From the IMG/VR virus record IMGVR_UViG_2734482594_000006: a stretch of DNA of 7,884 nt, one strand, 5' to 3'. Of the stretch, positions 3,376-7,884 are shown in pieces. Within the stretch, counting starts at the first letter, position 1; every line of letters starts with the position of its first letter. The translations under genes were made by a program, and so were the position numbers. The DNA comes from a virus. Lineage: Duplodnaviria > Heunggongvirae > Uroviricota > Caudoviricetes. The notes below the pieces were generated by a model. The model searched no databases and was not told the origin of the DNA. It worked only from the letters and a program-made list of their open reading frames with translations.

Positions 3376-3980
3376 ATGGCTAAACGCGTTACAAAATTAA
3401 AGGCCGCAGCCGAGGCGGCACCGCAGACCCGGGAAGAAGTCAGCCGTGATATCCGCACCCTGGGAGATATTCAGCGAGAGGCGCTGCGCCTGGAAACGGC
3501 GATGAATGACGAAGTGGCAGAAATCACCGCCCGTTATACGCCGCAGATTGAAAATCTTAAAAAGCAAATCAAAGTGCTTTTTAAAGGGATTCAGGNNNNN
3601 NNNNNNNNNNNNNNNNNNNNNNNNNNNNNNNNNNNNNNNNNNNNNNNNNNNNNNNNNNNNNNNNNNNNNNNNNNNNNNNNNNNNNNNNNNNNNNNNNNNN
3701 NNNNNNNNNNNNNNNNNNNNNNNNNNNNNNNNNNNNNNNNNNNNNNNNNNNNNNNNNNNNNNNNNNNNNNNNNNNNNNNNNNNNNNNNNNNNNNNNNNNN
3801 NNNNNNNNNNNNNNNNNNNNNNNNNNNNNNNNNNNNNNNNNNNNNNNNNNNNNNNNNNNNNNNNNNNNNNNNNNNNNNNNNNNNNNNNNNNNNNNNNNNN
3901 NNNNNNNNNNNAAGGTGAATAAAGGCGCTGAAAGTTTTTATGTCGAGCCTTTTGAACAGGACGCCGGACTGAATAAATAA
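3376..3980 (+). CDS. gam: Gam-like host-nuclease inhibitor (Ku-like DNA-end-binding protein); 5' part is secure, 3' boundary uncertain because of mask 3596-3911 and a frame change across it
   Basis: N-terminus MAKRVTKLKAAAEAAPQTREEVSRDIRTLGDIQREALRLETAMNDEVAEITARY matches my recollection of Mu Gam; AAGGA 8 nt upstream of ATG 3376. After the mask, a different frame reads KVNKGAESFYVEPFEQDAGLNK then TAA at 3978-3980, which resembles a Gam C-terminus as I remember it. Confidence 0.7.
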
Positions 3981-4464: not shown

Positions 4465-4760
4465 NNNNNNNNNNNNNNNNNNNNNNNNNNNNNNNNNNNN
4501 NNNNNNNNNNNNNNNNNNNNNNNNNNNNNNNNNNNNNNNNNNNNNNNNNNNNNNNNNNNNNNNNNNNNNNNNNNNNNNNNNNNNNNNNNNNNNNNNNNNN
4601 NNNNNNNNNNNNNNNNNNNNNNNNNNNNNNNNNNNNNNNNNNNNNNNNNNNNNNNNNNNNNNNNNNNNNNNNNNNNNNNNNNNNNNNNNNNNNNNNNNNN
4701 NNNNNNNNNNNNNNNNNNNNNNNNNNNNNNNNNNNNNNNNNNNNNNNNNNNNNNNNNNNN

Positions 4761-5228: not shown

Positions 5229-6146
5229 ATGATGAAATTACAACCCATGGGACTAAAAGGTCGCGCCCCCGCTCATGTCCGTCCGTGGACACCTGAAGAA
5301 GATGCGCTGCTGATTGCGCTTTATTCATCCACCCCGGTTAAGGATATTGCTGCCAGAATAAAAAGAACTGTCTGGGCTGTATATAACCGGACTGGTGTAT
5401 TGCGCAGTTCATACCCGGAGTTACTGAAATATAAACACCCAAGATTTACACCTGATGAAGATAAGTTTATTCGAAAAAATGCCAGAACAATGACCTGCCA
5501 GCAAATGGGAGAATATCTCGGACGTAATAAAGATTCTGTCAGATGTCGGGCAGGAATGATTGGTGCTGGATTAACAAAGTGCGGAGAGTTACGCCCCGGC
5601 ACGCGCATATCTGATGATGATGTACGTCTTATACGTGAGCTGCGTGATTCCGATTACCCACGCCGTCTGTCATTCCGGGAAATTGGCGAAAAGTTTGGAA
5701 TATCTGAACATTCTGCTCACGCAGTTTATTACCGTCGCCGGACTGCCGAGGACGCTGTATTACGGGAGTTAACGNNNNNNNNNNNNNNNNNNNNNNNNNN
5801 NNNNNNNNNNNNNNNNNNNNNNNNNNNNNNNNNNNNNNNNNNNNNNNNNNNNNNNNNNNNNNNNNNNNNNNNNNNNNNNNNNNNNNNNNNNNNNNNNNNN
5901 NNNNNNNNNNNNNNNNNNNNNNNNNNNNNNNNNNNNNNNNNNNNNNNNNNNNNNNNNNNNNNNNNNNNNNNNNNNNNNNNNNNNNNNNNNNNNNNNNNNN
6001 NNNNNNNNNNNNNNNNNNNNNNNNNNNNNNNNNNNNNNNNNNNNNNNNNNNNNNNNNNNNNNNNNNNNGAAGATGAGGACGGACAGGTGACGCACTGGTG
6101 CCATCTTTCGGCCTTGCCGGAATTACAGGGGATACATAATGGATGA
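5229..6146 (+). CDS. Putative DNA-binding protein with three tandem SANT/Myb-like helix-turn-helix repeats; the visible 182 aa plus the 25-aa C-terminal piece are in the same frame across mask 5775-6068
   Basis: ATG 5229 with AGGGGGTGA upstream. Repeats: about 5286-5402 (WTPEEDALLIALY...IAARIKRTVWAVYNR), 5445-5564 (FTPDEDKFI...MGEYLGRNKDSVRCR) and 5604-5741 (DDDVRLIREL...SFREIGEKFGISEHSAHAVYYRR), spaced about 53 aa apart. Stop TGA at 6144-6146. Confidence 0.55.
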   Translation: MMKLQPMGLKGRAPAHVRPWTPEEDALLIALYSSTPVKDIAARIKRTVWAVYNRTGVLRSSYPELLKYKHPRFTPDEDKFIRKNARTMTCQQMGEYLGRNKDSVRCRAGMIGAGLTKCGELRPGTRISDDDVRLIRELRDSDYPRRLSFREIGEKFGISEHSAHAVYYRRRTAEDAVLRELTXXXXXXXXXXXXXXXXXXXXXXXXXXXXXXXXXXXXXXXXXXXXXXXXXXXXXXXXXXXXXXXXXXXXXXXXXXXXXXXXXXXXXXXXXXXXXXXXXXEDEDGQVTHWCHLSALPELQGIHNG

Positions 6147-6282
6147 GCAAATTGTTGAATGTCCCACCTGTGGAAATGAGGACCCGGAGTATCTGAAAGA
6201 GTGCCCACATTGTGGTGAGATAAAATGTAACCACTGCGATATGGGCGACGACACTGCATGTATAAATTGTGAGGATGAATAA
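6139..6282 (+). CDS. 47-aa acidic zinc-ribbon protein with four CxxC motifs; absent from the supplied ORF track
   Basis: ATG 6139 is the first start codon after the in-frame stop at 6088-6090, with GGGG 8 nt upstream. Product MDEQIVECPTCGNEDPEYLKECPHCGEIKCNHCDMGDDTACINCEDE. It overlaps the end of the upstream gene by 8 nt (ATGGATGA). Stop TAA at 6280-6282. Confidence 0.5.
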   Translation: MDEQIVECPTCGNEDPEYLKECPHCGEIKCNHCDMGDDTACINCEDE

Positions 6283-6283
6283 T

Positions 6284-6571
6284 ATGGAAAAAGAAATCAA
6301 ATTTGCGCCTAAATCTATCGACGAAGAACTGGCTAAAATCGGCATGCTTGAACGTATGCGGGACATTATCGAATATGCGATAAAAGAAAATCTTGCAGCC
6401 AGAGAAGCCCTTTTGATAATGGAGCGGGAGATTAACCTGATTAAGGATGCTGTATCTCTGGATAATAAAATAGCCCGCGAGGAATACGTTCGCCGTAGGC
6501 TCGGTGTTGATGGTTCAGCAATTCTTACATCTGAACATTATGCAAAAATTTTTAATCTTTTTCAGCGGTAA
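6284..6571 (+). CDS. Hypothetical 95-aa protein in AT-rich DNA
   Basis: ATG 6284 lies 1 nt after the zinc-ribbon stop, with GAGG(A) about 9 nt upstream. Product MEKEIKFAPKSIDEELAKIGMLERMRDIIEYAIKENLAAREALL... has no domain I recognise. A sampled 60-nt stretch is about 38% G+C, against about 63% in a 60-nt sample from B. Confidence 0.5.
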   Translation: MEKEIKFAPKSIDEELAKIGMLERMRDIIEYAIKENLAAREALLIMEREINLIKDAVSLDNKIAREEYVRRRLGVDGSAILTSEHYAKIFNLFQR

Positions 6572-6791
6572 TCCCCATACAGGCCCGGAGATTGTCGAAA
6601 TGCCAGTCGGTATTAATATATGAGCCATCCTGGATATCTTCTGCATTTTCCGGGGTAGAGTTTTTTTGAGCGAGATTGATAATATGTATTGCCTCCTCAC
6701 GGGAAATCAGCCCCTTATCGAACAGGGTTACCATAAGATTTCCAGCCATTGTGAATGCGGCAACATCAAGTGCATTTTTTATATCTGACAT
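6552..6791 (-). CDS. Hypothetical 79-aa protein, the only minus-strand ORF I consider plausible
   Basis: ATG is the complement of 6789-6791, with AAGGA about 8-10 nt upstream on the minus strand. It is the only ORF of 60 aa or more on either strand across 6572-6861 and overlaps the 3' end of 6284-6571 by 20 nt. No recognisable domain. Confidence 0.4.
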   Translation of the reverse strand: MSDIKNALDVAAFTMAGNLMVTLFDKGLISREEAIHIINLAQKNSTPENAEDIQDGSYINTDWHFDNLRACMGITAEKD

Positions 6792-6820
6792 AGATTTTTC
6801 CTTTTATGTTAATTGACATG

Positions 6821-6847
6821 GCGGTGCGGTAACACCGCCCATTTTTT
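6821..6847 (+). terminator. Candidate rho-independent terminator for + strand transcription
   Basis: 7-bp G+C-rich stem GGCGGTG (6821-6827) pairing with CACCGCC (6834-6840), loop CGGTAA, followed by C then TTTTTT (6842-6847). On the minus strand the run would be A's ahead of the stem, so it is directional. It ends 14 nt before the gemA-like ATG. Confidence 0.45.
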
Positions 6848-6861
6848 ATGGAGCCACGATA

Positions 6862-7256
6862 ATGAATCGCGCTTCCCTGATTACCTTAATACATGTCGCA
6901 AAACGCGATCTACAGCTTGACCATGATACCTATACATCCGCGCTGCTGNNNNNNNNNNNNNNNNNNNNNNNNNNNNNNNNNNNNNNNNNNNNNNNNNNNN
7001 NNNNNNNNNNNNNNNNNNNNNNNNNNNNNNNNNNNNNNNNNNNNNNNNNNNNNNNNNNNNNNNNNNNNNNNNNNNNNNNNNNNNNNNNNNNNNNNNNNNN
7101 NNNNNNNNNNNNNNNNNNNNNNNNNNNNNNNNNNNNNNNNNNNNNNNNNNNNNNNNNNNNNNNNNNNNNNNNNNNNNNNNNNNNNNNNNNNNNNNNNNCT
7201 AACTGGCAGTGGCTGGAGCAACAACCCGCGCTGGCCTCTGATGTGCTGGAGCGTCT
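6862..7256 (+). CDS. gemA: GemA-like (Mu gp16 family) early regulatory protein; internal mask 6949-7198, 3' end inside the mask that begins at 7257
   Basis: ATG 6862 with GGAG 8 nt upstream. N-terminus MNRASLITLIHVAKRDLQLDHDTYTSALL resembles the conserved N-terminus of GemA/DUF1018 proteins as I remember them. The same frame is open in the visible island 7199-7256 (NWQWLEQQPALASDVLERL). Confidence 0.55.
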
Positions 7257-7884
7257 NNNNNNNNNNNNNNNNNNNNNNNNNNNNNNNNNNNNNNNNNNNN
7301 NNNNNNNNNNNNNNNNNNNNNNNNNNNNNNNNNNNNNNNNNNNNNNNNNNNNNNNNNNNNNNNNNNNNNNNNNNNNNNNNNNNNNNNNNNNNNNNNNNNN
7401 NNNNNNNNNNNNNNNNNNNNNNNNNNNNNNNNNNNNNNNNNNNNNNNNNNNNNNNNNNNNNNNNNNNNNNNNNNNNNNNNNNNNNNNNNNNNNNNNNNNN
7501 NNNNNNNNNNNNNNNNNNNNNNNNNNNNNNNNNNNNNNNNNNNNNNNNNNNNNNNNNNNNNNNNNNNNNNNNNNNNNGNNNNNNNNNNNNNNNNNNNNNN
7601 NNNNNNNNNNNNNNNNNNNNNNNNNNNNNNNNNNNNNNNNNNNNNNNNNNNNNNNNNNNNNNNNNNNNNNNNNNNNNNNNNNNNNNNNNNNNNNNNNNNN
7701 NNNNNNNNNNNNNNNNNNNNNNNNNNNNNNNNNNNNNNNNNNNNNNNNNNNNNNNNNNNNNNNNNNNNNNNNNNNNNNNNNNNNNNNNNNNNNNNNNNNN
7801 NNNNNNNNNNNNNNNNNNNNNNNNNNNNNNNNNNNNNNNNNNNNNNNNNNNNNNNNNNNNNNNNNCGCCACTACCAGATGTCAG

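Follow-up and report, generated by a model that had tools for sequence, protein, structure and literature searches.

The window analyzed here is a stretch of 7,884 nucleotides from a Caudoviricetes virus (IMG/VR record IMGVR_UViG_2734482594_000006), and it raises a question about gene orientation. Immediately before gemA lies an AT-rich block (positions 6284 to 6861) in which one small gene faces against its neighbors. A sequence-only reading of the window had taken the composition and the reversed ORF to suggest separate acquisition, with the two ORFs of the block as morons that might serve exclusion, defense or a toxin/antitoxin-like pair. Is the block a foreign insert or a standing part of the phage family, and what would a gene that points into the early operon be doing there?

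The gp14/gp15 slot of Mu-family phages

The ORF coordinates confirmed that a 95-aa plus-strand ORF and a 79-aa minus-strand ORF converge in the block and overlap by 20 nt (6552-6571) at their 3' ends (Table 1). The plus-strand ORF ends at 6571 and can be read from a GTG at 6269 (100 aa) or from the ATG at 6284 (95 aa), while the small gene and gemA are divergent and separated by a 70-nt spacer. In this region the window is 100% identical to prophages of six complete E. coli genomes. In an unmasked identical twin of the locus (L006), PGAP names both ORFs hypothetical proteins (WP_001280088.1 for the minus-strand ORF), and the minus-strand ORF is the sole opposite-strand CDS within the surrounding 14.8 kb, which bears out the earlier remark that no other ORF is reversed. 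The start of gemA was identified by tblastn, with 100% identity to the L006 protein that PGAP calls “gp16 family protein”.

Table 1. Features of the block and its immediate surroundings (positions in the window)
Feature	Position	Strand	Remarks
gp13-like zinc-ribbon ORF, 47 aa	6139..6282	+	immediately upstream of the gp14-family gene, in the same AT-rich stretch
gp14-family gene, 95 aa	6284..6571	+	last small early-operon gene before gemA
gp15-family small gene, 79 aa, acidic, three predicted helices	6552..6791	-	ATG start
Putative intrinsic terminator of the small gene	6462..6500	-	hairpin 6471-6500 plus T-rich tail, inside gp14 codons ~63-73
Hypervariable linker patch, small-gene aa 44-54	6630..6662	-	window-type alleles
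Shine-Dalgarno (SD) of the small gene, AAGGA	6799..6803	-	7 nt ahead of its ATG
GC-rich dyad GGCGGTG-N6-CACCGCC (6820-6839), then T-run	6820..6849	+	directly 5' of the gemA SD
gemA SD, GGAG	6850-6853	+	
gemA start	6862..6948	+	remainder of gemA masked in the window

DNA searches matched Mu, D108, SfMu and Yersinia Mu-like phages. In the RefSeq Mu genome gp14 (plus strand, 7655-7957) and gp15 (minus strand, 7896-8162) converge just 5' of gemA (8233). SfMu carries the same convergent pair, its small gene being SfMu gp16, and D108 has a 119-aa minus-strand ORF, without annotation, at the equivalent place. The plus-strand ORF of the window is 49% identical to Mu gp14 and 56% identical to D108 gp14 over its full length and matches phrog_6075 (E=5.4e-44), and the gp13-like ORF is 88% identical to the C-terminal 41 aa of Mu gp13 (phrog_5584, E=3e-26). 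The minus-strand ORF gave no BLASTP match to Mu gp15 (<30% identity), and the two are tied by profiles only: the window ORF matches phrog_32893 over its full length (E=1.3e-45), and so do Mu gp15 (6e-4) and the D108 ORF (5e-7). A joint profile of the gp15 family, whose PHROG profiles are phrog_32893, 8747 and 38610, recovered all small-gene types at E<=1e-20, and a fourth allele type was found in viral contigs (L018). All share an N-terminal module, [DG][VI][AT][AG][FY]..[AV][GS].L...L...[GA].I[ST]..[ED][AG]..I[IF], that is followed by a variable linker and a second short helix. What lies in the block is the gp14/gp15 module that transposable phages of the Mu family carry, and its plus-strand ORF is gp14, which closes the series of small genes of the Pe early operon before gemA.

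The window's small gene is like Mu gp15 (Mup15, NP_050619) in slot, orientation, convergent overlap with gp14 and a spacer of ~70 nt to gemA, and the two proteins have the N-terminal helix-Gly-helix module and the second helix in common. They differ in the overlap (62 nt in Mu, 20 nt in the window), in the linker and at the C-terminus, where the window protein lacks the acidic tail of Mu gp15 and ends in DWHFDNLRA, an ending common to other lineages. Likewise, gp14 of the window resembles Mu gp14 (E15) and D108 gp14, both of phrog_6075, in its position and in the codons that bear the hairpin described below, but its last ~15 residues differ and co-vary with the small-gene allele.

An exhaustive profile search for the small protein gave 29 matches, mostly proteins of 60-119 aa, and we inspected the genomic context of nine. 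Seven (P0028, P0036, P0033, P0032, P0040, P0024, and P0022) had the same layout, in which the small gene opposes the early operon and has a convergent 3' overlap with a gene of 91-121 aa; the other two, P0038 and P0041, were the weakest of the nine, and on their short contigs the layout is not seen. This count leaves out P0042, the weakest match, whose context is unclear. The convergent partners tested, those in L030 and L035, were gp14 homologues. In the shared layout gemA diverges from the small gene at a distance of ~70 nt, except in L035, where a DUF2786 gene takes the place of gemA upstream and the convergent partner is still present. The small gene was the sole opposed gene in five of the seven, and L039 and L040 have one more between gemA and mor. 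A scan of genome contigs with the gp14 profile yielded no confirmed loci. Two further matches were set aside: P0020, with 24 matches to the N-terminal module, is a giant repeat protein, a spider spidroin, so that its similarity is a compositional artefact, and P0039 is a DUF2680-type repeat of no known function. Both ORFs have been kept as reading frames in many lineages, which places them far beyond chance ORFs.

The G+C content of the block was 41.3%, as compared to 54.7% for A and 56.5% for B (window figures were computed without its eight masked N runs). The deviant composition noted earlier is therefore real, but it is not unique to the block: other early-region ORFs of the same prophage have 40-44% G+C and the gp13-like ORF 43.8%. 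In L006 the gp14-like gene has 39.9%, the small gene 42.1% and gemA 56.3%. Across ten lineages the small gene ranged from 36 to 46% and gp14 from 40 to 46%, while gemA was at 50-56% in nine of the ten; the tenth, L035 (41%), is AT-rich throughout. Moreover, Mu, SfMu, D108, and no fewer than eight other Mu-like lineages have both ORFs at exactly this position. Conservation at this position with normal composition would have spoken against the moron interpretation; the conserved position was found, but together with low G+C across the family. Because the low G+C is family-wide, it is an old, maintained property of the slot and not a sign of recent import. Judged from these comparisons, the arrangement, low G+C included, goes back to the ancestor of the Mu family.

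It is accordingly very improbable that the block is a foreign moron which this prophage alone acquired in recent times. Such an origin would fit the contrast between 41% G+C in the block and 55-56% in A, B, and gemA, and also a gene on the opposite strand with its own terminator, but it does not fit the recurrence of slot, orientation, and low G+C across the phages and lineages just named, nor the homology of the alleles across lineages. Separate acquisition found no support, since these same features are common to the Mu family; recent acquisition is refuted, although the slot may have been acquired long ago, at the root of the family. Of the moron-like organisation proposed earlier, the SD/ATG and terminator of the gene's own were found, while insertion polymorphism and foreign composition were not: the gene is conserved in all lineages except L026.

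In L026 the small gene is cleanly deleted and gp14, the dyad, and gemA are kept, and so, to judge from this contig, the small gene is dispensable in at least one prophage. Several other natural copies are frameshifted or disrupted; decayed copies are many, and gp14 was not lost with them. These disrupted copies fit weak selection in resident prophages. Divergence between intact alleles is also high, with small proteins <30% identical among Mu, D108, and L018, where gemA is 94-97% identical. Within window-type alleles, a 33-nt linker patch differs at 15 sites (45%) between haplotype groups without any indel or stop, as compared to 2-7% in its flanks. The patch coincides with the linker of low pLDDT, and it looks like a recombination import or a diversifying change in a disordered linker.

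The A7 run (6661-6667) was also considered as a site of programmed -1 frameshifting or of phase variation; the window has A_AAA_AAC there in the correct frame, and natural variants shift frame. This idea was rejected because the heptamer is out of frame in sister alleles, because the region is a variable linker elsewhere, and because distant relatives keep the zero-frame C-terminal motif. The frame variants at the A7 run are decay or assembly errors.

Coding strand and product of the small gene

The two reference annotations of Mu, the reference transposable phage, disagree on the coding strand of gp15. In the updated record, AF083977, the minus-strand gp15 of RefSeq is replaced by a plus-strand CDS of 55 aa, “Mu_54”, and the coding strand is therefore in dispute. 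We compared both strands across 12 lineages. On the strand of the small gene an ATG ORF of 77-119 aa was present in all 12, and the encoded proteins were significantly similar in 43 of the 66 lineage pairs. On the early-operon strand the longest ATG ORF was anywhere between 2 and 80 aa long, and similarity was limited to 2 of the 66 pairs.

Other features of the sequence pointed the same way. P0026, P0028, P0029, P0032, and P0033 combine the N-terminal module with a C-terminal (D/N)WH(L/F)DNL.A (DWHFDNLRA in the window), and this motif, kept in distant relatives, establishes the reading frame as far as the 3' end of the 79-aa ORF. An SD lies 5-8 nt before the ATG in the four allele types first compared, whose DNA is unrelated, and likewise in further lineages. 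Among window-type alleles, outside the linker patch, variable sites fell 6/1/10 on codon positions 1/2/3, and those of gp14 fell 1/6/18 (both counts leave out L008-L010, which have deletions or contig ends).

On this evidence it is extremely unlikely that the minus-strand ORF is a non-coding shadow and that the true gene, if any, lies on the plus strand as “Mu_54”. That view has the AF083977 annotation on its side, together with a plus-strand frame with coincident third positions that the window keeps open in part (46 aa from a TTG); the third positions of the “Mu_54” frame coincide with those of gp15. It is contradicted by the strand comparison above and by PGAP and independent gene callers, which pick the minus frame. 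“Mu_54”, the same DNA as Mu gp15 read on the opposite strand, is conserved in no other lineage, and the frame conservation on the minus strand therefore marks it as a shadow ORF. The strand question is settled for the minus strand, as in RefSeq gp15, and the comparison exposes an annotation gap in D108. By these measures the minus-strand ORF is a genuine protein gene that belongs to the Mu gp15 family as a strongly diverged allele. Frame conservation, the SD/ATG, and the terminator described below all support the earlier view of it as a real, separately organised gene.

In an AF2 model the small protein has helices at residues 2-25, 31-44, and 62-71 with a pLDDT of 75.5; confidence is highest at residues 11-40 (pLDDT 86-94) and low in the linker. 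The family is acidic, with net charges from -1 to -15. The longest hydrophobic run of the small protein, ~15 residues, is too short for a membrane helix (maximum KD19 of 1.27 in the window). In a few members the hydrophobicity of helix 1 is borderline (maximum KD19 1.6-1.8), and for these membrane association is less firmly ruled out. The gp14 model is all-helical with a pLDDT of 87.5 and a long helix at 39-73. In agreement with the earlier remark that neither product has a recognisable domain, searches of Pfam, NCBIfam, PADLOC, and PDB sequences returned no relatives of either protein. PADLOC-DB v2 gave 0 families at E<=1 for eight members of the small-protein family, and fold searches with both proteins returned generic helical matches only. 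These data define the gp15 family as fast-evolving small acidic proteins confined to Mu-like phages.

A hairpin within gp14 and a dyad before gemA

Downstream of the small gene, 17-56 nt past its stop codon, a minus-strand hairpin with a T-rich tail was present in 12 of 12 lineages. It lies within the coding sequence of gp14, where the codons that bear it encode (K)AR(E/D)..(I/V)RR(R/E)LG. In the 12-lineage alignment 95.5% of the stem cells were standard pairs, as compared to 33-50% in slid registers. Three stem pairs have changed on both sides, for example from C-G to U-A in four lineages, and four further pairs vary on one side with pairing kept; the covariation score was attained by 1 of 500 shuffles. 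The stem also favors one strand. The minus-strand RNA has many G.U pairs, which are A.C at the same positions of the plus-strand RNA, and the hairpin was more stable on the small-gene strand by a mean of 5.8 kcal/mol, with 11 of the 12 lineages showing this bias. The plus strand has no T-tail, and early transcripts should therefore pass the hairpin. A TransTermHP mark at 7839-7873 in AF083977 is the same element.

Taken as a predicted structure, this element gives the small gene an intrinsic terminator that would act on one strand only and is spelled out in the codons of gp14. A terminator that sits inside an opposite-strand coding sequence would thus have been kept there by compensatory changes. 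The window's own copy of the hairpin is weaker, with one A.C mismatch and a stability of -9.7 kcal/mol, and we count this against the explanation that we favor below.

At the other end of the small gene, in the spacer before gemA, the GC-rich dyad and its T-run are terminator-like on the early strand and present in all allele types. The dyad occurred once per locus in 35 of 42 loci; L037 has another hairpin instead and L035 a variant. Its stem is nearly invariant and consequently offers little covariation signal. In Mu the T-tract that follows the dyad is poor (CCCCCTTTCC). The dyad may attenuate early transcripts before gemA, or it may be the 5' leader of the small-gene mRNA. A Mor-type site was also considered and rejected, as the Mor-dependent Pm/t9.2 dyad of Mu is unrelated.

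A minus-strand match to the sigma-70 consensus was not found in the window, in its unmasked twin or in Mu. Synonymous-site conservation was 0.63 in gemA codons 1-20 and 0.58 in the remaining codons; the start of the gene thus does not stand out, and a promoter there is not supported. AF083977 annotates a “semi-early promoter” upstream of gemA. A literature search on gp15 found nothing.

Possible roles of the reversed gene

Since the small gene faces the early operon head-on, it is most likely transcribed independently of Pe. The features described above suggest that it is most likely an insulated single-gene unit, independent of the early operon, that would encode a small acidic three-helix binding protein. 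The unit would comprise the gene's own SD and ATG, a start divergent from gemA, and the terminator embedded in gp14; minus-strand transcripts would end at the hairpin and early transcripts would read through it. Expression would occur while Pe is quiet, that is, in the prophage state, as in the neighboring gem operon, and convergent early transcription after induction would damp it. In the work of Paolozzi & Ghelardini (1992), as cited in PMC3820752, the gem operon is reported to be constitutive in lysogens. The product would be a soluble acidic protein with a conserved helix-Gly-helix module at the N-terminus, a conserved C-terminal helix, and a freely evolving linker or tail. Most likely it would bind another protein, one from the host or from a phage that is either resident or competing, and serve as an accessory that the phage can do without, with exclusion, anti-defense, and host modulation as candidate roles. 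For the reading as a whole, a gp14/gp15 module in which the minus-strand gene is its own unit, transcribed independently of Pe and making a small binding protein, we would put the chances slightly above even. The negative scans for a minus-strand promoter, the lack of any functional homologue by sequence or fold, the borderline helix 1 of some members, and the disrupted natural copies speak against it.

Several other explanations deserve consideration. The unit could be mainly regulatory, with antisense transcription or transcriptional interference setting the read-through from Pe into gemA-mor and the protein a secondary or added function; it would then time the passage from early to middle genes or prevent Mor from leaking in lysogens. 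That every lineage retains the convergent 3' overlap, L035 without a gemA neighbor included, would be expected of such a unit. So would the placement of the terminator, which leaves the transcript antisense to the last ~25-35 gp14 codons, and the conserved dyad and T-tract on the early strand immediately 5' of the gemA SD. However, the protein itself is under selection, its N- and C-terminal motifs being kept where the DNA is unalignable; moreover, the dyad and gemA are present in L026 without the small gene, and the T-tract after the Mu dyad is poor. We regard a mainly regulatory unit as rather unlikely. A more far-reaching version, in which transposable phages have conserved the gp15 unit as a safety catch that works by convergent transcription, is speculative and in our judgment improbable. 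According to this idea, transcription of the gp15 unit in the lysogen would meet the end of the early operon head-on and stop at the gp14 hairpin and, together with the dyad and T-run before gemA, would keep basal read-through from Pe out of mor. Full firing of Pe would overrun and silence the unit and so set the early-to-middle switch, and the role of the small protein would be to strengthen one or the other of these states.

Another possibility is that the small gene belongs to the lytic cycle, that its promoter turns on after induction, and that its product joins gp14 and/or GemA in taking over the host or in DNA transactions, its orientation being incidental. Strict co-occurrence and overlap with gp14 in all lineages, a place among semi-essential early genes, and the failure to find a constitutive-type promoter are all consistent with this. 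It is nonetheless a fairly unlikely account, because genes meant to be expressed together would be poorly served by a head-on position to a strong early operon, the dyad is unlike the Mor-dependent Pm/t9.2 dyad, and gp14 persists in L026 without the small gene. As for the toxin/antitoxin-like pair suggested earlier, which we extend here to abortive infection, gp14 and the small protein are indeed conserved, adjacent, and small, with overlapping 3' ends. However, the genes are convergent and not co-transcribed, and PADLOC, Pfam, and NCBIfam gave no toxin, antitoxin or defense matches; these findings and the clean deletion of the small gene with retention of gp14 in L026 weigh against a pair of this kind, as do the many decayed small-gene copies, which have not led to the loss of gp14. 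The bicistronic operon with toxin and antitoxin domains of a type II system was not found, nor was the small hydrophobic membrane toxin of a type I system: both products are acidic or neutral helical proteins, and the small protein is without membrane-toxin character. A toxin/antitoxin or abortive-infection pair is therefore very unlikely.

Known systems offer partial parallels to the independent unit that we favor. The classical morons (lambda rexAB, lom, and bor, and those of HK97 type) are also autonomous, with their own terminator and deviant composition, and set inside an operon of different polarity or regulation. Unlike them, the small gene is no insertion polymorphism but conserved in its family, with only one clean deletion seen (L026), and has neighbors, gp13 and gp14, that are likewise low in G+C. 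Closer in setting is the olg1/gene 10 pair of the Pseudomonas Mu-like phage Fc02, where opposite-strand overlapping genes also occur in the early region of a transposable phage. One set is expressed in the lysogen, and both gave superinfection exclusion when expressed (PMC9936078). That pair differs in its location in the immunity region next to ner, its full overlap, and the lack of any sequence relationship, and we would treat it as a functional analogy only.

For this window, the outcome is that the block belongs to the ordinary, conserved equipment of the phage family and is no novel insert; what was met is an annotated though uncharacterized Mu gene pair in divergent allelic form. The present analysis adds the resolution of its strand, the definition of its family, and the putative terminator embedded in gp14. 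A unit of ~0.3 kb with defined ends offers a handle on a conserved gene that runs backwards where the Mu early operon ends, and the candidate roles that such a handle may open to study include exclusion, host modulation, and control of gemA-mor read-through.

Coding strand and natural variation of the small gene

Reference annotations of Mu disagree on the strand of the small gene. RefSeq places gp15 on the minus strand (Mu 7896-8162), whereas GenBank AF083977 has a plus-strand gene, Mu_54, in its place, and the D108 record carries a 119-aa minus-strand ORF (L002, the D108 locus, 1866-2225) that is left without any annotation. Sequence comparison favours the minus-strand gene as the better-supported call in all three records.

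The linker of the small gene contains a hypervariable patch (Table) in which 15 sites, with no indel, distinguish two haplotype groups; identity in the flanks is 93-98%. Such a pattern is suggestive of either a patch brought in by recombination or diversifying change.

Frame changes within the linker region were found in five natural variants of the protein (P0005 and P0007 to P0010), and in P0007 and P0008 the change falls exactly at the A7 homopolymer. After the change, four of these variants share one alternative frame, and that frame has no stop over 61 codons (6515-6700). The products are 59 to 92 aa long and their tails are unrelated. We considered programmed frameshifting as an explanation and rejected it; the five variants were judged to be products of decay or assembly errors.

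Three kinds of disruption of the small gene occur in nature. It is cleanly deleted in L026, one of the compared loci (2303-2355), while in L009 and L010 a large deletion starting at the equivalent of window position 6731 has fused it to distant late-gene-like sequence. The third kind, in L042 (H23; 1006-1703), is an IS1 inserted between the dyad and the small-gene start.

The profile of the small-gene family also scored 24 repeats of a 4,745-aa protein, P0020, with E=4e-17. This protein is a spider-silk spidroin and was rejected as a relative of the family; amphipathic helix-Gly-helix profiles can yield summed false positives in repeat proteins, and such scores call for caution.

Features of the window discussed in this section
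Feature	Position	Strand	Remark
gp13-like double CxxC zinc-ribbon ORF	6139-6282	+	47 aa
gp14 codons ~61-74	6462-6505		coincide with opposite-strand terminator
Hypervariable patch, small-gene linker	6630-6662	-	33 nt
A7 homopolymer	6661-6667	-
Dyad GGCGGTG-N6-CACCGCC and T-run	6820-6849	+	conserved; directly before gemA ribosome-binding site
Masked N runs (eight)	857-1120, 2099-2383, 3596-3911, 4465-4760, 5775-6068, 6949-7198, 7257-7577, 7579-7865		250-321 nt each

gp14 codons, the gp13-like ORF and masked sequence

Five nearly invariant residues of gp14 (N61, A64, R71, L73, and G74) lie where the opposite strand carries its terminator, in the part that forms stem and T-tail. One change in the terminator stem combines a synonymous substitution in an Ala codon with replacement of R by E in gp14. 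The gp14 protein and the RNA structure of the terminator therefore appear to constrain each other.

The first 13 residues of Mu gp13 are missing from the gp13-like ORF, which has no PGAP annotation in L006, the unmasked locus of identical sequence. Its resemblance to Lar-type restriction-alleviation zinc ribbons is weak and sub-threshold. ORF calls in the window are fused or shortened by the eight N runs; for example, the ORF at 5229-6146 crosses a masked run, and L006 has two separate genes there, one for a SANT/Myb-like protein, the other for a hypothetical protein of 110 aa.

The gemA region

In two related Mu-like prophages, extra opposite-strand genes lie between gemA and mor (L039 1450-1878, 142 aa; L040 1552-1887, 111 aa), and a Pfam search with their products gave no match. 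In these prophages the gemA-mor interval appears to be another slot for accessory genes that face backwards.

The dyad with its T-run resembles an early-strand intrinsic terminator, with a T-run that is good in the window (T6) but poor in Mu. If this element is functional, transcripts from the early-operon promoter Pe would be attenuated ahead of gemA-mor.
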